A DNA stretch of 64,000 nt from Bacteroidota bacterium (GTDB lineage: Bacteria > Bacteroidota > Bacteroidia > B-17B0 > Aurantibacillaceae): NCBI GenBank assembly GCA_025362395.1, contig JANYGK010000063.1:28955-92954 (forward strand), read 5' to 3'. Positions 5,884-40,780 of the stretch are shown here, piece by piece (positions within the stretch are counted from its first letter, which is position 1; each line of letters opens with the position of its first letter). The position numbers were made by a program, and so were the translations under genes. The notes below the pieces were generated by a model that saw only the letters and a program-made list of their open reading frames with translations, searched no databases and was not told where the DNA came from.

Positions 5884-7566
5884 GTGGATACTTTCATTCA
5901 TATACTGAAGCTTTGTGCGGGAGTAGGATTATTCCTATTTGCCATGTATCTTATTGAAGAATCGTTAAAAAATCTGTCAGGCAGAAATTTTAAACTTTTT
6001 TTGCAACGCATTACCAAAAATAAATTAGGCGCGGTAACCGGGGGTGCTATTGTAACAGGGGTGCTTCAAAGCAGTTCACTGGTTTCATTAATGGTACTTG
6101 CTTTTGTAGGAGCGGGTGTATTTACCATGAAAAATGCATTGGCAATTATATTAGGTGCAAATTTGGGAACAACCTTAGATAGTTGGTTGGTAGCCACTCT
6201 TGGCTTTAAAACAAATATAGAAGTAGTGGCATATCCGGCAATTTTTGTGGGAGGCTTATTACTTATTTTATTTGGTAAACGAACTTTCGTAAAATATATT
6301 TCCTATTTTTTATTTGGTTTTGGGCTACTATTTATAGGTCTTTCATTTATGAAAACCGCTATGGAGTCTCAGGTTCAGGCCTTTGATTTTTCTCACTACA
6401 CGAAAATGCCATTAGCGGTATTTTTATTAATTGGTTTTTTAATAACCTTATTGGTTCAATCAAGTTCCGTAACAATGGCACTTACACTTACTGCACTTCA
6501 TGTTGGAGCTGTTAACTTTCCTGCAGCGGCAGCTATTGTACTTGGTTCGGAAACCGGAACCACCATTAAATTAGTACTGAGTGGCATTGGTGGAACTGCC
6601 TCAAAAAAAAGGGTTGTATTAGGCAATTTGATATTTAATATAGTCCTCACCTTATTGGCTTTTATATTTATAAAACCTCTTTTGCAATTAATTACTTCTG
6701 TTCTTAATATTACGAGTCCTCTTATTGGATTAGTGACCTTTTCGAGCCTGGTTAATCTGTTTAGTATAGCACTGTTTCTTCCATTTCTAAATCTCTTCGT
6801 TCAATTTCTTGAGAAATTCTTTAAAAACACAGACGTTGCCGGGGCGGCTTTTATTGGACATGCTTCTGTTGAAGAACCACAAACTGCTTTGGATTTATTT
6901 AAAAGAGAGATAAACTATTTTATTTACAACAGTATGCTTCTTAATCTGGAACAGCTTGAAGTTGATGCCGGGTGGTTAAAAGGGAATTCTGACGTAATAA
7001 AGATGAATGAGCGTAAGAAATTCGCCTTAAAAACGACCCCGGAGAAATATGAATTCTTAAAACTTTTACAAGGTGAATTACAAACATTTTATTTATTACT
7101 CAGAACAAAATTGACGGGAGTTCAGTTGGCTGAATTGAGCCAATTGGCTTCTTCCGCCCGTGATAGCATGCACTCCGTAAAGAGCATGAAGGATATTAAA
7201 ACTAATATTACCGATCTTAGTCGCTCTTCCAAAAATATTAAATTCAATGTGTTAAACCTACAAAAAACTCAAACAGAAAATTTATACAAATTATTAAACT
7301 CCTATATAGTGAGTATAGATGCAACCGACTTTGAAAATTTGCAAATGGCATATAGCGACATACAAAAAAACTATAACGACACGCTTACCGGCTTTTACAC
7401 AGACGCTCAAACAACAGCCATTGAAAATATGGATATGACAACCGTTATTAGTTTTAACAGAGAACTCTTCTCATCAAATAAAGCGATGCTAATGGCCGTA
7501 AAAGACTTTTTACTGGACGAAAAACAAGCAGAGGATTTTAATGAAATCCAAGCCGATAATACATAA
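5884..7566 (+). CDS. Na/Pi cotransporter family protein with PhoU-like C-terminal domain
   Basis: Duplicated NptA-type repeats (GANLGTTLDSW and GSETGTTIK) followed by a soluble helical tail. GTG start 2 nt after the AI-2E stop. Confidence 0.85.
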   Translation: MDTFIHILKLCAGVGLFLFAMYLIEESLKNLSGRNFKLFLQRITKNKLGAVTGGAIVTGVLQSSSLVSLMVLAFVGAGVFTMKNALAIILGANLGTTLDSWLVATLGFKTNIEVVAYPAIFVGGLLLILFGKRTFVKYISYFLFGFGLLFIGLSFMKTAMESQVQAFDFSHYTKMPLAVFLLIGFLITLLVQSSSVTMALTLTALHVGAVNFPAAAAIVLGSETGTTIKLVLSGIGGTASKKRVVLGNLIFNIVLTLLAFIFIKPLLQLITSVLNITSPLIGLVTFSSLVNLFSIALFLPFLNLFVQFLEKFFKNTDVAGAAFIGHASVEEPQTALDLFKREINYFIYNSMLLNLEQLEVDAGWLKGNSDVIKMNERKKFALKTTPEKYEFLKLLQGELQTFYLLLRTKLTGVQLAELSQLASSARDSMHSVKSMKDIKTNITDLSRSSKNIKFNVLNLQKTQTENLYKLLNSYIVSIDATDFENLQMAYSDIQKNYNDTLTGFYTDAQTTAIENMDMTTVISFNRELFSSNKAMLMAVKDFLLDEKQAEDFNEIQADNT

Positions 7567-7621
7567 GTACTCCATAAATTAGAATGGTAATTTTATAAAA
7601 ACTCACTTAATATCATAAAAT

Positions 7622-10123
7622 ATGGCTTCAACTAATTTTAATATCAAAGGCCTAAGTCCTGAAGCGGTAAAGGAATCAAGAGAAAAGTACGGATCCAATA
7701 AAGCAGACTATAAAAAAGAAAACGGCTTTATGGATGCGCTTAAAAATATTATCAAAGAACCAATGGTTACTTTATTGCTGGCAGCCTCACTTATTTATTT
7801 TGTGAGCGGTAAAACAGGCGATGGAATTTTTCTAAGCTCTGCCATTGTTTTAGTTTCCGCTATTTCGCTCTATCAGGATTCAAGAAGTAGAAACGCTTTA
7901 GATAAACTAAAAAACCTGACACAACCCAATTGCAAAGTAATACGGGATAACAAAATAGAGGAAATAAAAAGTGAAGATGTTGTTATAGGAGATAGCTTAA
8001 TGGTAGAAGAAGGAACTTTCATCACTGCAGACGGGATCATTGTACACTCTAATGATTTCTCAGTAAATGAATCTATTCTAACAGGAGAATCCTTAGTGGT
8101 TTATAAGGATCAACATAAAGAAGACAATCTCATCTTTCTGGGAACAACTGTATCTAGTGGCTTGGCTATTGCAACCATTACGGCTATCGGCATTCAAACA
8201 CGACTGGGAAAAATCGGAAAAAGCCTGGAGAGTATAAAAGAAGAAAAAACACCTTTGGAATTACAGATTGGTAACTTCGTAAAAATGATGGTCATAGCAG
8301 GTGCTATTGTTTTTTTAGTTGTTTGGGGCCTGAATTATTTTCATTCTCATAATATATTAGATAGTTTATTGAAAGCACTCACACTGGCCATGAGTATTTT
8401 ACCCGAAGAAATTCCGGTTGCTTTTACAACATTTATGGCACTGGGAGCTTGGCGACTGATGAAATCAGGCATCATTGTTAAACAAATGAAAACAGTGGAA
8501 ACCCTAGGCAGCGCTACTATTATTTGTACTGATAAAACAGGAACCATTACTGAAAACAAAATGAGCCTCGCAAAATTATTTGTAGTGTCTTCTCAAAAAA
8601 TATCCGAGCCCGAAACAACACTAAGCGAAACTGAAAAAGAACTGATTACATTGTCCATGTGGTCGAGCGAGCCAATTCCTTTCGATCCTATGGAAATAGC
8701 TCTGCATGCCGCATATTCAAAATTGGGAGTGCGTGATGAACGACCTAAATACAACTTGGTACACGAGTATCCTTTAGGCGGAAAACCACCCATGATGACA
8801 CATATTTTTGAAGACGCTAAACGACATCGGATTATTGCGGCTAAAGGTGCGCCGGAAGCATTAATGAAGGTAAGCAACTTAACCCTTGACGAAACAAAAA
8901 AAATAGAAGAAGCCATTAAAACATTAGCAAAAGAAGGATACCGGGTTTTGGGAGTTGGAGAAACAACCTTTAGTGGAACTGATTTCCCATTGGAGCAACA
9001 GGCATTTAAGTTTAAATTTAAAGGCATTGTCGCTTTTTATGATCCTCCAAAGAAAAACATTCAATCTGTTCTTGAAAGCTTTTACAACGCCGGAATTACC
9101 GTTAAAATAGTAACAGGCGATAATGCTGCTACCACAATAGCCATCGCTAAACAAATTGGATTTAGAGGATATGAGAAAAGCTTGAGTGGTGATGAACTTA
9201 TGAAATTAAGTGATATTGAATTACAAGAAAAGGTGTTAGATACACAAATATTTACGCGTATGTTTCCTGAGGCAAAACTAAAAATCATTAATGCTTTAAA
9301 ATCAAAAAATGAAATTGTAGCAATGACAGGAGACGGTGTGAATGATGGCCCCGCGCTAAAAGCAGCGCATATTGGCGTTGCCATGGGTAAAAAAGGGACA
9401 GAAATAGCTAAACAGGCTGCTTCACTTATTTTAGTGGATGATGATCTTTCTAAAATGGTAGACGCCGTAGCTATGGGCAGAAAAATTTATGCTAATTTAA
9501 AGAAGGCAATTCAGTACATTATCTCCATACACGTTCCTATCATATTAACCGTTTTTATTCCTTTGGCTTTGGGGTGGATTTATCCTAATATTTTTTCTCC
9601 TATCCACATTATCTTTTTAGAATTAATTATGGGACCTACCTGCTCAATCATTTACGAAAATGAACCTATGGAAAAAAATACAATGTTCCAAAAACCAAGA
9701 CCTTTTTCTACCGATTTTTTTAATTGGAAAGAGCTTACAATAAGCATCCTGCAAGGATTAATGATTACTGCGGGCACGCTACTAATGTACCAACTGTCAG
9801 TGGTAAAAGGTTATAGTGAATCACTGACACGAACAATGGTTTTTACAGTTCTTATAATGGCTAACATCGTTTTAACTTTAGTTAACCGGTCTTTTTACTA
9901 TTCCATTATTACAACTATAAAATATAAAAATAATATGGTGCCAATCATGATCATTATCACAATCATTGTTTCAGGACTACTCCTTTATGTGACGCCCTTT
10001 ACAAAATTTTTCCAATTCGAAAAACTGAGCTTTCTTCAATTAGGAGCTTGTGCAATAATTGGTTTCTTATCAGTTATCTGGATTGAATTGGTAAAGTTAA
10101 ACCGAAGAATTAAAAGTCGGTAA
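7622..10123 (+). CDS. cation-transporting P-type ATPase (type II-like, ion specificity unknown)
   Basis: Motifs LTGESL, phosphorylation site ICTDKTGTITENKM and hinge MTGDGVNDGPALK. About ten predicted TM helices. Confidence 0.9.
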   Translation: MASTNFNIKGLSPEAVKESREKYGSNKADYKKENGFMDALKNIIKEPMVTLLLAASLIYFVSGKTGDGIFLSSAIVLVSAISLYQDSRSRNALDKLKNLTQPNCKVIRDNKIEEIKSEDVVIGDSLMVEEGTFITADGIIVHSNDFSVNESILTGESLVVYKDQHKEDNLIFLGTTVSSGLAIATITAIGIQTRLGKIGKSLESIKEEKTPLELQIGNFVKMMVIAGAIVFLVVWGLNYFHSHNILDSLLKALTLAMSILPEEIPVAFTTFMALGAWRLMKSGIIVKQMKTVETLGSATIICTDKTGTITENKMSLAKLFVVSSQKISEPETTLSETEKELITLSMWSSEPIPFDPMEIALHAAYSKLGVRDERPKYNLVHEYPLGGKPPMMTHIFEDAKRHRIIAAKGAPEALMKVSNLTLDETKKIEEAIKTLAKEGYRVLGVGETTFSGTDFPLEQQAFKFKFKGIVAFYDPPKKNIQSVLESFYNAGITVKIVTGDNAATTIAIAKQIGFRGYEKSLSGDELMKLSDIELQEKVLDTQIFTRMFPEAKLKIINALKSKNEIVAMTGDGVNDGPALKAAHIGVAMGKKGTEIAKQAASLILVDDDLSKMVDAVAMGRKIYANLKKAIQYIISIHVPIILTVFIPLALGWIYPNIFSPIHIIFLELIMGPTCSIIYENEPMEKNTMFQKPRPFSTDFFNWKELTISILQGLMITAGTLLMYQLSVVKGYSESLTRTMVFTVLIMANIVLTLVNRSFYYSIITTIKYKNNMVPIMIIITIIVSGLLLYVTPFTKFFQFEKLSFLQLGACAIIGFLSVIWIELVKLNRRIKSR

Positions 10124-17720: not shown

Positions 17721-17730
17721 ATTCCGCTCC

Positions 17731-18098
17731 GGTGGACCCGGAGAGATTCGAACTCTCGTCCAAACAAGGAATTAGTGAGCTTTCTACAAAGTTTAGAACT
17801 TACTTGGTTTTCGATTTAAGTCAGGCGTAAATTCATACCAAACTTAAACTTAGCTATTGGTATTGCTTTAAGTAATAGCATTCCTAAAACAATTTGCTAA
17901 TTTATGATGCAAAATTCTCGTCGCTAAGCAAAAACGCTACGAGGGTTGCAAAGGTTGCTAAATCTTAGATTAAGCAGCCATAGCGTAAGAATTCTCTTCG
18001 CCGAATAAAAGTTTGAGAGTTGATTTTAAGGTGCCATATCCACAACGCACCACCTGCTTACTCATCAATCGCGCTCGCTGTCAAAACCGGTCGGGCCC
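17731..18098 (-). ncRNA. ssrA: tmRNA (ssrA)
   Basis: The minus strand starts GGGCCCGACCGGTTTTGACAGCG and ends GGACGAGAGTTCGAATCTCTCCGGGTCCACC. The acceptor stem GGGCCCG/CGGGTCC has a G3-U pair, and a T-arm is present. Internal tag ORF GGC GAA GAG AAT TCT TAC GCT ATG GCT GCT TAA gives GEENSYAMAA. The terminal A of CCA is not encoded. Confidence 0.92.
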
Positions 18099-18666: not shown

Positions 18667-21045
18667 TTATTTTGCTACAACGATCGGTTTGGTCGCTACT
18701 CCCGATTTAGAACTTAAGGTTATATAATAAACACCCGATTTATAATCGCTTATATTAATAGGATATGTAAAGGATTCATTTAATATAATTTTTTCCGTAT
18801 ATAATAACCTTCCGGCAATATCCCGTATCTCCACCAGCGCATCTTCCCCGTTTTTTGTATAACCGGTTAATTGTATGATATCCGTAGCAGGATTCGGTAC
18901 CGCCGAAAAGTAATGATCTGTGTTGGCGATCTGCGCCACACCCACTCCAATATTCATTTGCATGCAAATGGTATCTCTTACTTTATTGATTGCTTCGTAT
19001 TGCTTATTCACTATATCCGTAATACTTGTAATACAGATATTCCCTGTGGGGTTGGTATAATAAACCCGGCAAAGTGACTGTGGTGTAGAGCTCTTGGGAA
19101 TGGTAGAATCCTTATATGATAAACAAATGATTTTATTTCCGTTTACTAAAAAATCAGGATTTTCAGGGTAAAACGCTATGGGAACCCGGTTAACTACATT
19201 TAAAATGCTTGCCCCGCTAATGTTGAACTCATAACCCAAAATGGGTGAATTCGGATTTGTAATGTCTATATCAAAAAAGTTTTGGGCAAGGTTAATACCG
19301 CTTATACTTATGGTAGCTGTTTGATTGGGATTGAGGGTTCCCTGCGGGAACATACATTTTGAATTGAGGTTGGTACCATGCAAGGCGCAGTTTGTGATGA
19401 GGGCGGCGTCCCATACCGTTATGCTTCCGCTGTTGTTAAGATCATTACAGGACGTGGGCGTAATCGTATTGTTCAGTATCTTACTAACATACAACCGCCC
19501 ATCTACCACCTGTTGAGTTCCGCTTACATTTAAATCTCCCATCTTGGTTGTACCCGCACATACCCCATTACAATCTACCTTGGCATTACCGAATTGTACA
19601 CCCGCGCAGTCAGAAAAAGAAGGACATGAGCTCAGTAAATTAAAGCTTTTAACGCCTGCCGAATTTTTGGTAATGTGAATACAGGCTTGGGCCCAGTTGT
19701 TATCGTAAGTTTTTTCATAATGTCCCAAAGCATCTGCCGATTGGTCCCAGTTTACTTTAGCTGCCATGGTATAGCTTCCAGTATCTACGTCCGTAATATC
19801 GATCCATTGACAATCCAGCCCGGCGGAATAAATATCTCCGCATTGCTTGGAAATTCCCATGTTACTACAGGAGAACTTGGCTATTCCCCCGTCCGGGCAA
19901 CCGTCGTAATCCAATACACAAAAACCGTTCTTAAACCCAACAGGGATCATGCTACCGTTAAACTTATACAAGCGGTACTCCGCATAACCCTCATAATGCG
20001 CATGCCCGTGGCAATTATTAAACGTAAACTGACCGGGGTGCGTGGAAGGCCCGCCAATGTAATAATCCAGGTCGCCGACATTCTTAATGTAGGTATCAAA
20101 TTTAATTACTGTACGGTTTCCGTAACCGCTCAGGCAACTTTCCGCTACACGGCAATCTCCCGCAAGTGCATTTACTGTTCCGAGGTTCAGTGAGCTGATA
20201 AACTGCGACTGAACAATGGTAAGATCAGGTCCCGAACATAATGGATTGGGATAATACATACAGCTTCCGTCATCTACACTCGCCAAAGGATTATAATTAC
20301 AGGCCGTAGAAACCGTACAACCCGAAATAGGACCGGCATAATTAATTGCAAATGTAATAGGGGCTGAACAGGCGCTGTTAAGCGAGCCTACTCTTATGAT
20401 ATAGGTTTTAGCGGTATCCAATGCGCCTGATACTTTTGAAAGCAAAGCGCAATAATCATCATTATACATGATAGTACCTGTATTATTGGTTGTAAAAGGG
20501 CCGTTGCAATTTTCATATACCCATATTTTGGTATTACAGGTATTGGTTAAGCCACACATAGTAAAATCGTATATGCCAAGCTGTGTAGGCTTAAACTTAT
20601 AATAATATTCCGACCCGGGGGCCGTATAGGTACCCGTAGTGACTGACAATGCGGAAGAGCAGGATTCCCCTGGCGCGCAATTGAAATAGTAATTATATGA
20701 GCTTCCGTATTGCCCGTTATTATTGAGCTGCAACACATTGTTAACGTAAATTTGGAAACTGCCCGTACCGTAATTACAGCATATCCCGTCACCGTATGTG
20801 TCAGTAATATTAAAATCAAGGCAAGTTGATGAACTCACGCATACAGTAGATGTATAGGTAGTTGTATTGGTTAAGGTAGGATTAGATAAAAGGACATTCC
20901 CGAATTTATCCTTTAATAGCCAGGAAGTTTCCAACGGGTAATTGTCAGTGGATAATACTATTTTAATTTGTATTTGTCCTACAGGGCATTGGCTGTAAGC
21001 AACGGACATTAAGCTGATTAATAAGTAAGTAAAGATGTATTTCAT
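18667..21045 (-). CDS. T9SS-secreted multidomain protein with a lysyl oxidase (LOX) catalytic domain
   Basis: Signal peptide. Cys-rich N-terminal modules. LOX core: PDLTIV...NNCHGHAHYEGY...GFKNGFCVLDY...CGDIYSAGLDCQWIDITDV, where CQWIDITDV is identical to animal LOX. C-terminal type A T9SS sorting domain (VPNPATDIIQL...GVYYITLSS...). Confidence 0.85.
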   Translation of the reverse strand: MKYIFTYLLISLMSVAYSQCPVGQIQIKIVLSTDNYPLETSWLLKDKFGNVLLSNPTLTNTTTYTSTVCVSSSTCLDFNITDTYGDGICCNYGTGSFQIYVNNVLQLNNNGQYGSSYNYYFNCAPGESCSSALSVTTGTYTAPGSEYYYKFKPTQLGIYDFTMCGLTNTCNTKIWVYENCNGPFTTNNTGTIMYNDDYCALLSKVSGALDTAKTYIIRVGSLNSACSAPITFAINYAGPISGCTVSTACNYNPLASVDDGSCMYYPNPLCSGPDLTIVQSQFISSLNLGTVNALAGDCRVAESCLSGYGNRTVIKFDTYIKNVGDLDYYIGGPSTHPGQFTFNNCHGHAHYEGYAEYRLYKFNGSMIPVGFKNGFCVLDYDGCPDGGIAKFSCSNMGISKQCGDIYSAGLDCQWIDITDVDTGSYTMAAKVNWDQSADALGHYEKTYDNNWAQACIHITKNSAGVKSFNLLSSCPSFSDCAGVQFGNAKVDCNGVCAGTTKMGDLNVSGTQQVVDGRLYVSKILNNTITPTSCNDLNNSGSITVWDAALITNCALHGTNLNSKCMFPQGTLNPNQTATISISGINLAQNFFDIDITNPNSPILGYEFNISGASILNVVNRVPIAFYPENPDFLVNGNKIICLSYKDSTIPKSSTPQSLCRVYYTNPTGNICITSITDIVNKQYEAINKVRDTICMQMNIGVGVAQIANTDHYFSAVPNPATDIIQLTGYTKNGEDALVEIRDIAGRLLYTEKIILNESFTYPINISDYKSGVYYITLSSKSGVATKPIVVAK

Positions 21046-36150: not shown

Positions 36151-36270
36151 GGTATAATGAAAAGTGGAAAATGTTAAGGGTAATTTATCCTTTTTGTCCT
36201 GCAAGCTTGCAGGATGTCCCTGCAAAAATTGTATCGAGGATCGTTAAATAATGGAAAGTGAAATTCTGTT
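36151..36270. repeat. convergent-gene spacer with a perfect 16 bp palindrome flanked by direct repeats
   Basis: CCTGCAAGCTTGCAGG at 36198..36213. Flanking direct repeats ATAATGAAAAGTGGAAAAT (36154..) and ATAATGGAAAGTGAAAT (36248..). Confidence 0.5.
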
Positions 36271-37072
36271 AAGCAATACTTCTTAAAAGCTCATTAAAAT
36301 AGGCGGCGCTTTTTAACAGCCTGCTGCCATACCAGCTGAATAGTTCTCCGTCTACTAACACTATTTTAGCATTAGGAAGCGCTGCCTGTAATTCGTCGGC
36401 ATGCTTTTGCTTAAAAGAAAAAGGTTCTGAGGATAAAAGAATAATTTCGGGAGCTAACTGTTTTATGTTTTCAAGTGTTAGTTCGGGGTAGCGTGAATCC
36501 TTTTTTTCAATTACATTTTCCCAACCTATTCTATGAATCATATCACCAATAAAGGTTGCTTTACCGGCTGCCATATAAGGTTTCCATATTAAATATAAAA
36601 CGCTTTTTTTGGATGTACTTAATGAATCAAATGAAATTTTTACAGAAGCTGAAATATCTTTTGCTTTACGGGCTGTATCGGTCAATTCTCCAATCGCATC
36701 AATTGTCTTCAGGGCATCCTCTAAATTATAAATATCGCTCATCCAAACCTTAAATTCTTTTTGCAAAGCTTCTATCTGTGTTCTGTCATTTTCCTCTTTA
36801 TTTCCTATAATAAGATCGGGCTTTAAAACACGGATCTTTTCAATACTCAACGTTTTAGTTCCCCCTACTCTTGTAACTGTTTCAAACATTATTTTTGGGT
36901 GAATACAAAACTTAGTAATCCCGACTATTTCATTTTTTAACCCAAGCTCCCACAACAATTCGCTTTGCGACGGAACAAGCGATATGATCCGCTTTGGATA
37001 AGCTTTAAATTCAATAGTATTTTTTAATGCGTCGGTAAAAAGCATGGCGCTAATTTGAGAATAATACCGCAT
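36269..37072 (-). CDS. BtuF/TroA-fold (helical-backbone metal/cobalamin receptor-like) binding protein, no obvious signal peptide
   Basis: KRIISLVPSQSELLWELGL...VGIT..C......V..VGG......EKI..LKPDLIIG pattern of class III periplasmic-binding proteins. Confidence 0.7.
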   Translation of the reverse strand: MRYYSQISAMLFTDALKNTIEFKAYPKRIISLVPSQSELLWELGLKNEIVGITKFCIHPKIMFETVTRVGGTKTLSIEKIRVLKPDLIIGNKEENDRTQIEALQKEFKVWMSDIYNLEDALKTIDAIGELTDTARKAKDISASVKISFDSLSTSKKSVLYLIWKPYMAAGKATFIGDMIHRIGWENVIEKKDSRYPELTLENIKQLAPEIILLSSEPFSFKQKHADELQAALPNAKIVLVDGELFSWYGSRLLKSAAYFNELLRSIA

Positions 37073-37085
37073 ATTTACTACCCGA

Positions 37086-37985
37086 ATGTCCCCTACTTTT
37101 AAAGCCCATATTTCTTTATTTGCAGCACAGGTAATTTACGCGTTAAATTATTCCATTGCCAAAGATCTGATGCCAAACCACATTAGTCCGTTTGGCTTAG
37201 TGATGATGCGTGTGGGAGGTGCTTTTATTTTATTCTGGCTCATCTCTTTTGCTCTTAAGCCTGAAAAAGTAGAAAAGAAAGACCTAAAAAAATTAATGCT
37301 CCTGGCACTGTTTGGTGTTTCTGTAAATCAAATCTTTTTTTTATGGGGTCTGAGTTTATCTACACCCATAAACTCCGCTATTATTATGGTAAGCAATCCC
37401 ATTGCAGTTATGCTCTTTACCGGTTTTATATTAAAAGAAAACATAACTTCCATAAAACTTACAGGACTCGGCTTTGGAATATGCGGCGCACTAACCTTAT
37501 TATTATTTAAAGCTAACGGAAATTTTTACATAGGTAGTGAAACTATTACAGGAGACATTATGACCTTGGTAAACTCCTTATCCTGGGCGGCGTTTGTGGT
37601 AATGGCAAAGCCCTTTATGCAAAAATACCAAACAGTAACTGTTATGAAATGGGTGTTTTTATTTGGGTTTATATATGTGTTTCCTATTGGTTTCCCTGAC
37701 CTTTTTAAAGTGGATTGGATACATTTACAGTCACAAACAATTTTTGCAATGGCCTTTGTGGTAATAGCTACCACCTTCTTGGCTTATTTACTGAATATGT
37801 TCGCCTTAAAATCATTAAGCTCATCTGTAGTAAGTATGTATATATACTTACAACCCTTCCTAGCTACTCTTATTGCTGTTGCTTGGGGAAAAGACACTCT
37901 GAGTCCGATCAAATTAGTATCTGCAGGCTTTATTATTACAGGGGTTTACCTCGCCGGCAAAAAAGAAAAAATTAAAAGTATTTAA
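37086..37985 (+). CDS. DMT superfamily (EamA-like) transporter
   Basis: 299 aa, ten TM segments arranged as two EamA repeats. Confidence 0.85.
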   Translation: MSPTFKAHISLFAAQVIYALNYSIAKDLMPNHISPFGLVMMRVGGAFILFWLISFALKPEKVEKKDLKKLMLLALFGVSVNQIFFLWGLSLSTPINSAIIMVSNPIAVMLFTGFILKENITSIKLTGLGFGICGALTLLLFKANGNFYIGSETITGDIMTLVNSLSWAAFVVMAKPFMQKYQTVTVMKWVFLFGFIYVFPIGFPDLFKVDWIHLQSQTIFAMAFVVIATTFLAYLLNMFALKSLSSSVVSMYIYLQPFLATLIAVAWGKDTLSPIKLVSAGFIITGVYLAGKKEKIKSI

Positions 37986-38081: not shown

Positions 38082-38732
38082 ATGGTCCATATCCTTTCCC
38101 AACAAAACTCTATTTTTAATCAGTTTATTGCTGAGCTTCGCGATACAACTATTCAAACAGACAGTATGCGGTTCAGAAAAAATTTAGAGCGCATCGGGGA
38201 AATTATAGGGTATGAAATTTCTAAAACAATGGATTATGAAACGCGTGATACCATCACACCTTTAGGCATTTCGCAAACAAGCCACTTAAAAGCGCAACCT
38301 GTTATAGCTACTATTTTGCGCGCAGGCTTACCCATACACATGGGGGTTTTAAATTATTTTGACCGTGCGGACAATGCCTTCATTTCTGCTTACAGAAGGC
38401 ACCATAAAGATAATACCTTTGATATTCACGTGGAATATGTATCAAGCCCCGGCATTGAAGATAAAACATTAATTATGTGTGATCCGATGATAGCCACAGG
38501 TGCCTCTATTGTATTAGCTTATAAAGCTATTTTGGCAAAAGGAACTCCAAGGCATGTGCACATTGTTTCCGCTATCAGCAGCAAGCAGGGCGTTGATTTT
38601 GTTAAGGCCAATATGCCCACACAAAACTTTACCATTTGGTGTGGTGCGGTAGATGAAGAGCTTACCGCTCATTCTTACATTGTGCCGGGCTTAGGCGATG
38701 CCGGAGATCTTGCCTTTGGCGAAAAAATATAA
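38082..38732 (+). CDS. upp: uracil phosphoribosyltransferase
   Basis: PRPP loop IMCDPMIATGAS and C-terminal YIVPGLGDAGDLAFG. Confidence 0.92.
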   Translation: MVHILSQQNSIFNQFIAELRDTTIQTDSMRFRKNLERIGEIIGYEISKTMDYETRDTITPLGISQTSHLKAQPVIATILRAGLPIHMGVLNYFDRADNAFISAYRRHHKDNTFDIHVEYVSSPGIEDKTLIMCDPMIATGASIVLAYKAILAKGTPRHVHIVSAISSKQGVDFVKANMPTQNFTIWCGAVDEELTAHSYIVPGLGDAGDLAFGEKI

Positions 38733-38761: not shown

Positions 38762-39241
38762 ATGGATAGTACTGAAATATGGAAATTTATTTCCGCGGCA
38801 CTGGCCTGTACAATTTCATTATCCAAAATAGGAATCCCCGCTGTAATAGCTATTTATAAATATAATTATTTTATGGCGCTTTTGAGCAGCTGTACCGGAG
38901 CCGTAGTTGGCACAATTGTATTTACCTATTTAAGCGCCGGGATCTTAAAATGGTGGAATACATTAAAAGATAAATGGTTTTCCTCCAAACATCCGAAAAA
39001 AATATTCACCAAATCGAACCGACGTGTTATAAGGATTAAGCATCGTTTCGGGTTAGTAGGTATAGCAGCTCTAACACCTATTTTATTATCTATACCGATA
39101 GGCGCATTTTTAGCAGAGCGTTTTTATAAAGATAAGAAAAAAGTGATCCTTTATTTAAGTGTATCAGGTGTTTTTTGGTGTTTTACCTTTTATTTTATTT
39201 TCCTGTTTTTTTATGGCACGTTCAAGTCGTGGTTCTCGTGA
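38762..39241 (+). CDS. hypothetical small membrane protein
   Basis: 159 aa, four hydrophobic segments with a basic central loop. Confidence 0.6.
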   Translation: MDSTEIWKFISAALACTISLSKIGIPAVIAIYKYNYFMALLSSCTGAVVGTIVFTYLSAGILKWWNTLKDKWFSSKHPKKIFTKSNRRVIRIKHRFGLVGIAALTPILLSIPIGAFLAERFYKDKKKVILYLSVSGVFWCFTFYFIFLFFYGTFKSWFS

Positions 39242-39432: not shown

Positions 39433-40419
39433 TTATGACTTTATAAACTTTAATTGTTTTTGGTTACTGCCAACTGTGATATTAAGTATATAAATCCCCT
39501 GCTGCAATTCAGCGACAGATAAATAAGAATTACTTAGTTTAGTTTCGGGTTGCAAAACAATTTCTCCCAATAAGTTTAAAACAGAAACTGTATAGCTTTT
39601 AGATATATCTACTGAAATGTACAATACATCTGTTGAAGGGTTTGGATATACAGTAATAGAAGTTAAATAAGAATTTTTTATGGAAGTTGGGATTTGATGG
39701 TTTAATACACCAACAGCATCAAGGTCAAAACCCCCACTGCCAAAGGCTGTAGGCCACGGGTCATTTACTTTTTGTTGATTGGCATCGCGAGTGCAATATT
39801 GATTTTGCAGGCAGCCTACCACATCTATTACTTTTACGTGAGTAATTGCCTGTTTATTTAACAAAGGCGTATCTGGTATATCAGCCAGGTCAAAGGGTGT
39901 ACCGTACTGTGCCCTGTATTTTCCGGCAAGGTTATTAATTTTAGTGGGGTCGGTAGTACCAAAACCACCGGTTTGAGTGGTTGTATCTGTATTACTTACA
40001 GCGGGGAACCTAAAAAAATGAATGCCGTCACTGCTTACTTCCACAAAAGCCAACTCTAAAAATGTATCGTTAAAGCTATTTTCAAATACAGCTAAATCAG
40101 GCCCCGGGCCATCTATGATCACATTTGTAAATTGCAACGTTGCAGCACCTCCGTCCCCAAGGCTCACTACACCTGTAGTTCCTGCTTTTCCTAAAGCGGA
40201 AGTGCTGTCGCCCACGTTGGCGTATGCCCCGGAAGAAACAGAAATGTCTTGGAGGCCTCTCACTATGTGGCATTTGGTTGCCCAACCAATACATAATGAA
40301 CTGTCTTTGTAAACAGCTGTAGTGCCGGGCTGCCCGGCGGCAGGCGCAAATTGAGCAACTGAATTATAATGACAGGCTAAAGCGCTGATCAGTAAACTGA
40401 AAGAAATAATAGGTTTCAT
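39433..40419 (-). CDS. T9SS type A sorting-domain protein of unknown function, under cobalamin-riboswitch control
   Basis: Start moved to the ATG at 40419 (MKPIISFSLLISALA...), which gives a signal peptide. C-terminal VYPNPSTDVLYISV...GIYILNITV is a T9SS CTD. The ORF-track extension 40420..40542 lies inside the riboswitch. Confidence 0.8.
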   Translation of the reverse strand: MKPIISFSLLISALACHYNSVAQFAPAAGQPGTTAVYKDSSLCIGWATKCHIVRGLQDISVSSGAYANVGDSTSALGKAGTTGVVSLGDGGAATLQFTNVIIDGPGPDLAVFENSFNDTFLELAFVEVSSDGIHFFRFPAVSNTDTTTQTGGFGTTDPTKINNLAGKYRAQYGTPFDLADIPDTPLLNKQAITHVKVIDVVGCLQNQYCTRDANQQKVNDPWPTAFGSGGFDLDAVGVLNHQIPTSIKNSYLTSITVYPNPSTDVLYISVDISKSYTVSVLNLLGEIVLQPETKLSNSYLSVAELQQGIYILNITVGSNQKQLKFIKS

Positions 40420-40437
40420 TAAAATAGGTACAATGCC

Positions 40438-40620
40438 TTTACAAGTCTTAATTCCCGAGACCCTCGACATTGATTTTATTGACAGGTTTTCTGACTTGTT
40501 CTTATTTATGCGCCTTCCCGACCTTTTAATTTCAGTGGCCAATGCATAACCTATTTAATAGAACTTACAGCTGCGGGTACAGTTTTGGATTTAAACCAAA
40601 TTCCCTATTCAACGCCGCAA
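40438..40620 (-). promoter_or_regulatory. cobalamin (B12) riboswitch
   Basis: Minus-strand RNA: GGCGUUGAAUAGGGAAUUUGGUUUAAAUCCAAAACUGUACCCGCAGCUGUAAG ... GGCCACUG ... GGGAAGGCG ... AAGUCAGAAAACCUGUCAAU. All conserved core blocks and the B12 box are present in the right order and spacing. Confidence 0.85.
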
Positions 40621-40780
40621 AAATAGTACTTTTTAATTAATTTTTCACATCTATTAATTGAGCTAAATTTTTTAAGATCCTATTTTGCAACCTTAAAGAA
40701 TTTTTAGCGTCTGACACAAAGTCGTAAAACACCAATGGCACAATAATCGTATATTGTAAGGTAATTATAGAGCTAAATCC

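Follow-up and report, generated by a model that had tools for sequence, protein, structure and literature searches.

A remote relative of the B12-binding protein BtuH downstream of a cobalamin riboswitch: a probable type IX-exported accessory of corrinoid uptake in Bacteroidota

The riboswitch and its gene

A stretch of 64,000 nucleotides (nt) from the genome of a Bacteroidota bacterium (GenBank assembly GCA_025362395.1, contig JANYGK010000063.1, positions 28,955 to 92,954; hereafter the window, numbered from its first letter) carries on its minus strand a cobalamin riboswitch followed by a gene, 39433-40419, for a protein with a type IX secretion system (T9SS) sorting domain. We analysed the riboswitch, the gene, and the protein family to which its product belongs, which appears to be a remote branch of the BtuH superfamily of vitamin B12 binders. 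A first-pass annotation, read from the DNA letters, had proposed a cobalamin riboswitch with its core blocks and B12 box in order, ending a few tens of nt ahead of the start codon, and both points held. A full-model match (positions 1-189) to Rfam RF00174 was located at 40464-40636 on the minus strand, with a score of 80.0 bits, far over the gathering score of 31.5 (E = 4.5e-18), and its 3' end stands 44 nt from the ATG at 40419. The AGGGAA core, the GCCACUG...GGGAAGGC block, and the B12 box AAGUCAGAAAACCUGUC (40481-40496) were all found on the minus strand in the expected order. Helix P1 pairs GUUGA (40609-40613) with UCAAU (40478-40482), and homologous leaders carry compensatory variants of it (GUUGG/CCAAU, GUCGG/CCGAU, GUCAA/UUGAU); covariation was also observed at a control helix (19-23/31-35) in 14 homologous leaders. 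The L5 hairpin, CUG-UACCCG-CAG, occupies 40571-40582.

About 5-10 nt upstream of P1 lies TATTTTTG (40618-40625, minus strand), which resembles the -7 promoter element of Bacteroidota (consensus TAnnTTTG) and, judged by that known consensus, would serve as the promoter. In almost every homologue under direct riboswitch control, a TAnnTTTG box keeps the same spacing to the AGGGAA core. Because the box recurs at the same place in related leaders, we read the 5' end of the Rfam match (40614-40636) as promoter DNA that probably stays untranscribed, and the transcript appears to start almost at P1, directly after the box.

The open reading frame (ORF) track gives the gene as 39433-40542 (minus strand; 369 amino acids, aa; TTG start), with a 41-codon extension that overlaps the riboswitch. 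Alignment of homologues, most of which begin there, places the true start at ATG 40419, giving a gene of 39433-40419 and a protein of 328 aa. The extension is thus the riboswitch read as protein, as had been proposed. The public call for the same protein is 345 aa from ATG 40470 rather than 328 aa, and several database entries of the family (P0001, P0002, P0019, P0027, P0033, P0117, and P0120) start at an upstream ATG inside the P13 hairpin of the expression platform, at the AUG of its CAAUGU strand. The result is a spurious conserved N-terminal extension, MF(R/G)(V/A)SG(R/K)KLIK..LY; the conserved RNA element is a source of systematic start-site misannotation in this family.

The riboswitch was also expected to control a single gene. 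The genes downstream of 39433-40419 (38762-39241, 38082-38732, and 37086-37985) are all on the plus strand, and the next minus-strand gene lies far beyond these three; the unit is therefore monocistronic.

Protein architecture

The start codon (40417-40419) opens a Sec signal peptide of residues 1-22 (MKPIISFSLLISALACHYNSVA followed by QF; 40354-40419), recognized by inspection and homologue alignment from its MK start, hydrophobic core, and SVA/QF site; an A-Q-F-A-P motif is kept across the family. In Bacteroidetes, cleavage by signal peptidase I is followed by formation of an N-terminal pyroglutamate (the Q-rule), and an invariant Q23 as first mature residue fits this rule. Residues 23 to about 240 (39700-40353) form the domain that we describe below as BtuH-like on the basis of fold model and profile comparison. 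A type A T9SS C-terminal sorting domain (CTD) follows at residues 257-328 (39436-39651), ahead of the stop codon (39433-39435). The CTD matched PF18962 (46 bits, cut-off 27, E = 6.4e-12) and TIGR04183 (45 bits, cut-off 23, E = 7.9e-12) over residues 257-327 of 328, its sequence matched the solved CTD structures 8glj_D and 8glk_D, and it was modelled by AlphaFold with a predicted local distance difference test score (pLDDT) of 72-87 in a first run. The cleavable signal peptide and the type A CTD were both part of the first-pass reading and were borne out, as was the statement that the protein is not recognizable as BtuB, BtuF, or BtuG.

Residues 1-256 gave zero matches to Pfam or NCBIfam at E <= 0.1, and the whole protein gave none to PF14717 (DUF4465) at the same threshold; by sequence it is therefore not BtuB, BtuF, BtuG, or a DUF4465 protein. 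The modelled domain is a beta-sandwich, neither a propeller (BtuG) nor a two-lobed binding protein (BtuF). The family has invariant loops of its own, YKDSS..WA and NDPWPT, and conserved acidic motifs that resemble metal sites (DGG, FENSF, and FDLD).

Family size, riboswitch association, and operons

Database searches with the N-terminal domain returned about 8000 relatives at 65-80% identity; almost all are about 326 aa long and end in the same CTD. None has a functional name; they are called hypothetical protein or, generically, T9SS sorting domain or secretion protein. An exhaustive search of 50%-identity clusters returned 2210 representatives, 786 of them below 1e-30, and a scan of one genome per species of the GTDB taxonomy found the family encoded in at least 569 genomes. 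The records of these genomes are labelled Flavobacteriales, Chitinophagales, Sphingobacteriales, Saprospiraceae, Crocinitomicaceae, and non-Bacteroides Bacteroidales.

Whether homologues elsewhere also follow RF00174 had been put forward as a check on the first-pass reading, and the association proved strong. A profile made from Rfam-confirmed riboswitches was run over 80 homologous loci, 31 of which were also checked with Rfam itself. Too little upstream DNA was present in 12 loci, leaving 68 assessable. A cobalamin riboswitch was found in 57 of these (84%); in every case it precedes the homologue on the same strand, and none lies downstream or antisense. Rfam confirmed 18 of the 57 at the gathering score, and the riboswitch of L032 was found by nhmmer only. 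Weak nhmmer matches in two other loci, L041 and L067, were discarded, since Rfam gave no match at either.

The riboswitch stands directly ahead of the gene in 21 loci, which include the window arrangement and all of its closest relatives. In 27 of the riboswitch loci the family gene belongs to an operon led by a TonB-dependent receptor that is BtuB-like, its best NCBIfam match being the B12 receptor. The gene immediately upstream codes in about 20 loci for a DUF4465 protein of BtuJ type, which usually has a T9SS CTD of its own. Four loci, in genomes of Flavobacteriaceae type (Flavobacterium, Algibacter, and Mariniflexile), show the order BtuB, BtuG, family gene, and their BtuG homologue matches solved BtuG structures (E = 7e-23). 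In two loci a DUF4430-CTD protein precedes the family gene; DUF4430 is the C-terminal domain of transcobalamin-type binders (PMC4350170). Operon members were checked by Pfam, NCBIfam, and Protein Data Bank (PDB) comparisons.

Further proteins with a T9SS type A CTD are encoded in the riboswitch operons (L033 5010-5996, L080 4918-5922, L030 5189-5950, L061 4670-5938, and L044 2596-3897). The CTD proteins of these operons comprise DUF4465 (BtuJ-type) proteins, DUF4430 (transcobalamin-like) proteins, and a family of 420-430 aa for which Pfam gave no match besides the CTD; the last is a candidate for a further corrinoid binder. In a Sediminibacterium locus (L075 5639-5995), a 118-aa protein of Cys_rich_CWC and DUF5522 domains is encoded between riboswitch and homologue.

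No riboswitch was found within 5-6 kb of the remaining 11 of the 68 members (L020, L022, L042, L050, L058, L062, L068, L071, L074, L041, and L067), which lie amid housekeeping genes; their neighbours encode RelA/SpoT, UvrA, PurA, and M17 and S46 peptidases. These members may be paralogues that are constitutively expressed or differently regulated. Upstream of one of them, at L067 1159-1248 (minus strand), lies a Flavo-1 small RNA (RF01705, 56 bits).

The family domain also occurs in fusions. Among the representatives it is joined to DUF4465 (P0139, P0155, P0157, and P0259), to DUF4430 (P0247), to a PKD domain (P0174), and to a BtuG-type DUF5074 propeller with a CTD (P0238). Propeller plus BtuH domain is the layout of B. 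thetaiotaomicron BT1490, and PKD plus BtuH domain that of BtuH2 (PMC13616437). The domain is doubled in tandem in P0121 (565 aa). It also stands at the C-terminal end of T9SS proteins of more than 2000 aa (P0187, 2151 aa; P0234, 2235 aa). In BT1490 itself (BtuG1/BtuGH), the BtuH domain follows the propeller (8blw_B residues ~22-370) and is C-terminal; a 2026 review places the BtuH domain at the N-terminus of the fusion, contrary to the order in 8blw_B (PMC13616437).

Relationship to BtuH

An initial AlphaFold run, based on 28 close homologues, reached a pLDDT of only 52, with the N-terminal domain below 50, and was left out of the fold search. An AlphaFold2 model of the domain built from 111 diverse sequences reached a pLDDT of 95.6 and a predicted template modelling score of 0.91. 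Foldseek comparison of this model with 350,542 PDB chains ranked 8blw_B at the top, followed by 7biz_A and then 7biz_B (E = 1e-3 to 4e-3, probability 1.00, template modelling score (TM) 0.45-0.46). The first is BtuG1/BT1490, a propeller plus BtuH domain, and 7biz is BtuH2; they are the only BtuH-domain structures among the 50 matches listed. The next matches were discoidin C2 and carbohydrate-binding module (CBM) family 32 sandwiches, with TM 0.3-0.37. BtuH's authors themselves saw just a faint resemblance to a CBM-like domain of alginate lyase (PMC8941943), with which these secondary matches agree. Structural comparison with BtuG, BtuH, and DUF4465 binders had been suggested beforehand; of the three, BtuH provided the top matches, and BtuJ structures were not among the fold matches listed.

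For profile comparison, the 3' end of BT1488 (BtuH1) was taken from primer sequences in the supplement of PMC12751083, and an exact-match scan led to 43 human-gut metagenome contigs. Contig L098 carries btuK1, btuK2, btuH1, btuB1, btuGH, and btuJ1 in the published order; its btuGH (6998-8988) is split into two overlapping ORFs, probably by an assembly frameshift. BtuH1 itself, named cell surface protein by NCBI, has about 3000 relatives and is covered by neither a Pfam nor an NCBIfam model. An hhalign comparison of the family alignment with a 34-sequence BtuH alignment gave 96.6% probability and E = 6.5e-10 over 54 columns; controls (the reversed alignment and 20 column-shuffled BtuH alignments) reached a best E of 0.09-0.72. 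A second collinear block, FDL...I.hVKV, aligned with E = 0.029, slightly better than all controls.

We compared the BtuH2 residues of the nucleotide-loop and metal site (Gln333, Asn399, Phe401, Glu406, Ser582, and Glu584), of which Asn399, Phe401, and Glu406 are known to contact the B12 nucleotide loop and metal site. The aligned block, VSLG.GG...G.DF..(E/G)N.F...E....V.VS.D, holds the equivalents of these three: Asn114-x-Phe116 and Glu122 of the window protein align with BtuH2 Asn399-x-Phe401 and Glu406. By eye, PxxGQ (residues 26-30) resembles PAPGQ, and the C-terminal strand D232-L-D234 resembles S-T-E. Gln23-Phe24 was considered as the equivalent of BtuH2 Gln333-Phe334 and was rejected, Gln23 being the first mature residue under the Q-rule; PxxGQ is the better candidate for Gln333. 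The corrin-amide contacts of BtuH2 (His476, Tyr510, Trp511, and Trp577) map to His171, Trp203, and the GW(L/I)GE motif of BtuH1, and the stretch between the two blocks spans 110 residues in BtuH1 as compared with 34 in the family.

HMMER was also run on two chimaeric representatives. P0171, which joins the family domain to a C-terminal region with a faint propeller-repeat match, gave zero PDB matches. P0238 aligned to 8blw_B for about 100 residues beyond the propeller, which we treat as overrun because the C-terminal part alone failed to reproduce it.

Taken with the fold model, the profile match places the family domain as a remote, divergent, T9SS-sorted branch of the BtuH B12-binding domain superfamily, and it may bind corrinoids. 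The first-pass annotation had described the family as one without an established role. This stands for the family itself; it does not extend to its relatives, as a role is established for the BtuH superfamily. For both BtuH and BtuJ, experiments have shown B12 binding and a requirement under B12 limitation (PMC8941943, PMC13616437).

Expression platform and mode of control

The expression platform is a P13 hairpin (40431-40472, minus strand) recognized from covariation in the 14 homologous leaders. Its outer helix pairs CAAUGU (40467-40472) with GCAUUG (40431-40436), its inner helix pairs GGGUCU (40458-40463) with AGACUU (40443-40448), and its loop L13 is CGGGAAUUA (40449-40457). The 3' end of the hairpin is 11 nt ahead of AUG 40419. 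Across the homologous leaders both helices were 100% paired, and four of the six inner pairs were altered on both sides. None of 500 shuffles reached the observed covariation, and a shift of the pairing partner by one column in either direction lowered pairing from 98% to 42-49%.

The L13 loop CGGGAA is conserved among the leaders, and its CGGG complements CCCG of the aptamer loop L5. Both loops are nearly invariant, and the contact between them therefore has no covariation support of its own. Divergent leaders (L009 and L010, with L13 CGGAUG and L5 GCCC, and L014) were considered as a source of such support and yielded no clean compensatory case. An L5-L13 kissing loop is known from translationally acting cobalamin riboswitches. 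No intrinsic terminator was predicted in the leader, and the stability of its thermodynamic fold was ordinary (z = 0.96). We therefore do not favour transcription attenuation. Considering the geometry of P13, B12-dependent occlusion of the initiation region, that is, translational repression, is most likely.

Function and alternative explanations

Five independent lines of evidence (riboswitch control, operon neighbours, fusions, fold, and profile homology) agree and indicate that the protein, derived from a BtuH-type domain, assists corrinoid uptake at the cell surface or as a secreted factor. An extracellular or surface role in corrinoid capture was the central suggestion of the first-pass annotation; it is strengthened here by the fusions to DUF4465, BtuG, and DUF4430 domains, the fold matches to BtuH, and the BtuH profile homology; binding itself is a step that we infer. 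On balance we consider the protein to be probably a B12-repressed, T9SS-exported, BtuH-like protein that captures corrinoid outside the cell for BtuB and BtuG.

The proposed order of events is as follows. Promoter, riboswitch, and one gene would form a self-contained, B12-responsive unit. When intracellular corrinoid is plentiful, the ligand-bound aptamer would dock L5 (CCCG) onto L13 (CGGG) of P13; docking would stabilize the P13 helix, the 3' strand of which ends so near the AUG that ribosome access would be blocked and the gene repressed. When B12 is scarce, repression would be relieved and the protein made. Following Sec export and removal of the signal peptide, the type A CTD would direct the protein across the outer membrane via the T9SS, to be anchored on the cell surface or released. 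There, the 230-residue domain would capture corrinoids and pass them to BtuB (and BtuG), the genes for which would lie elsewhere in the genome, beyond the 64 kb analysed. Of this scheme, the analysis shows the riboswitch with its conserved platform, the CTD, the association with btu operons, the fusions, and a remote homology to BtuH; the direction of regulation and its level, export by the T9SS, binding of corrinoid, and its hand-off are presumed.

Several observations weigh against this interpretation. The Foldseek scores to BtuH are weak (TM ~0.46, E ~1e-3). HMMER searches of PDB sequences (with the single protein, two family profiles, P0238, and the C-terminal part of P0238) gave only CTD or propeller matches, and BtuH did not appear among them even at E <= 10. 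Pairwise BLASTP gave no significant alignment to BtuH1. The relationship to BtuH is a distant one, extending over 54 confident hhalign columns and 29 marginal ones, and the family has no counterparts of the BtuH corrin-amide contacts (His476, Tyr510, Trp511, and Trp577). No partner gene for BtuB, BtuG, or BtuJ was found within the window. The 11 members amid housekeeping genes lack the riboswitch, and the leader fold is of ordinary stability. Translational control is argued from geometry; classical Shine-Dalgarno sites are absent from Bacteroidota, and how P13 would occlude initiation in their absence is uncertain.

As the main BtuH corrin-contact segment is missing, the chief rival is a domain that does not bind corrinoid or that prefers a different ligand. 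In the first form, which we judge unlikely, the protein would be a component of B12 uptake that serves as a surface scaffold or docking partner for BtuJ/DUF4465 or BtuG near BtuB, or it would be a decayed binder like B. thetaiotaomicron BtuK2, a non-binding paralogue in the btu operon that provides a precedent (PMC13616437). The missing segment includes His476, Tyr510, and Trp511, and the family domain very often adjoins or is fused to proven binder domains that could supply the binding. Such partners are not always at hand, however: in 21 loci, the window among them, the riboswitch precedes this gene alone and no binder is encoded next to it. The family keeps its counterparts of the phosphate- and metal-site residues of BtuH (Asn, Phe, Glu, and the C-terminal acidic pair), the 65-80% identity over thousands of members points to a constrained ligand site, and tandem duplication, as in P0121, is typical of binding modules.

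In the second form, which we regard as improbable, the domain would bind another B12-related ligand, such as cobinamide or other incomplete corrinoids, lower-ligand bases, or cobalt, the riboswitch tying precursor salvage to B12 status. Cobalamin riboswitches are also found ahead of cobalt transport and salvage genes, the ligand-contacting loops of the family are unlike those of BtuH, with the invariant loops YKDSS..WA and NDPWPT instead, and the acidic motifs that resemble metal sites are conserved. The operon partners BtuB, BtuG, and BtuJ handle corrinoids, however, and zero cobalt transporter genes were found among the operons sampled; moreover, BtuH and BtuJ bind complete cobamides and cobinamide alike, so that this explanation overlaps with corrinoid capture. 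A carbohydrate-binding or adhesin-type sandwich with no part in B12 acquisition, its riboswitch incidental or serving other B12-dependent physiology, would account for the discoidin and CBM32 matches and the 11 loci that lack a riboswitch, yet it is very improbable given the 84% association with an upstream, same-strand riboswitch (by our own estimate, chance would place one within 6 kb in less than about 1% of cases, assuming a few to about 15 riboswitches per genome of several Mb), the fusions to three different B12-binder domains, the BtuH profile match, and the same weak CBM-like resemblance in BtuH itself (PMC8941943).

If capture of corrinoid is accepted as the function, the binding mode must differ from that of BtuH, because the segment of about 75 residues that makes the corrin contacts has no counterpart in the family. 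A more speculative extension, which we offer tentatively, is that outside gut Bacteroides the T9SS deploys a whole toolkit of corrinoid binders (BtuH-like, DUF4465-CTD, DUF4430-CTD, and further CTD proteins), and that the members standing alone under a riboswitch of their own, as in the window, are released into the medium as soluble corrinophores, comparable to haemophores, with a binding mode other than that of BtuH. Such corrinophores would pick up B12 away from the cell and bring it back to BtuB/BtuG.

Other features of the window

About 2.4 kb from the riboswitch gene, the first-pass annotation had pointed to a BtuF-fold protein encoded at 36269-37072 (minus strand). Its product is indeed Peripla_BP_2/TroA-like, with a weak match to BtuF (64 bits against a cut-off of 234); as called, it has no obvious signal peptide. 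Its gene shows no regulatory or operonic link to the riboswitch gene: it has no riboswitch, and the three plus-strand genes lie between the two. The only Rfam match within the window besides the riboswitch was to a transfer-messenger RNA gene at 17730-18098 (minus strand; RF00023, 105.9 bits). A coding segment at 18676-18906 (minus strand) resembles a T9SS CTD (tblastn E = 1.6e-5 to the CTD of a DUF4430 protein), which suggests that the organism has further T9SS cargo.

Significance

Most microbes need vitamin B12 but few make it, and the way in which cells capture it shapes communities in soil, freshwater, the ocean, and animal guts. The present analysis provides a functional hypothesis for a large unnamed family of about 8000 database entries in at least 569 species genomes, and it extends the BtuH superfamily well outside the gut, to members whose ligand loops differ. 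It also points to the T9SS as the system by which B12-scavenging proteins are delivered, a connection not found in the literature searched, and suggests that environmental Bacteroidota deliver such proteins through this system. The stand-alone form with a private riboswitch suggests that a released corrinophore is possible. The riboswitch itself is compact, with a well-supported P13 platform and a proposed kissing loop, in a phylum without Shine-Dalgarno-led initiation.

Comparison with known systems

The riboswitch resembles the cobalamin riboswitches of the E. coli btuB and env8 class, which act on translation through an L5-L13 kissing loop, in its full RF00174 core and B12 box, in the complementarity of L5 CCC(G) to L13 (C)GGG, and in a P13 adjoining the start codon. 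It differs in that its P13 holds no Shine-Dalgarno sequence, as expected for Bacteroidota, and ends before the AUG, at a distance of 11 nt, and in that the transcript apparently begins almost at P1, after the TAnnTTTG box.

For the protein, the proposed delivery to the surface via a T9SS CTD has a parallel in HBP35 of Porphyromonas gingivalis, a tetrapyrrole-binding nutrient protein; the ligand of HBP35 is haem rather than corrinoid, the folds are unrelated, and HBP35 is not under riboswitch control. BtuJ/DUF4465 proteins (PF14717) share with the family a jellyroll-like beta-sandwich, and also riboswitch repression and a role in extracellular B12 capture, both of which are proposed for the family. 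In related loci, DUF4465 proteins also bear T9SS CTDs and are encoded immediately upstream of the family domain or fused to it. The family domain is nonetheless distinct, co-occurring with DUF4465 rather than replacing it, and BtuJ structures were absent from the fold matches listed.

BtuH (BT1488 BtuH1, BT1956 BtuH2, and the C-terminal domain of BT1490; 7BIZ and 8BLW chain B) is the best fold match and the closest parallel. The two have in common the VSLG.GG block, the collinear FDL...I.hVKV block, and a C-terminal acidic strand; the same partner domains (PKD and the BtuG propeller); the lack of any Pfam or NCBIfam model; and the same operon setting, after btuB, btuG, or btuJ under a cobalamin riboswitch. 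In contrast, the BtuH segment YH.Q.YYP.W...W.N...WGYADN (about 75 residues, with His476, Tyr510/Trp511, and Asp522) is absent from the family, which has instead about 28 extra N-terminal and about 18 extra C-terminal residues with YKDSS..WA and NDPWPT. No prior description of T9SS-sorted B12 binders, or of BtuH relatives in Flavobacteria, was found in the literature searched, in which work on BtuG, BtuH, BtuJ, and BtuK deals almost exclusively with the lipoproteins of human-gut Bacteroides. As lipoproteins, the BtuH proteins carry an invariant lipobox Cys (Cys18), and they have been described only in gut Bacteroidota, whereas the present family carries a signal peptidase I site and a T9SS CTD and occurs in metagenome-assembled genomes and isolates labelled Flavobacteriales, Chitinophagales, Sphingobacteriales, Saprospiraceae, and non-Bacteroides Bacteroidales.

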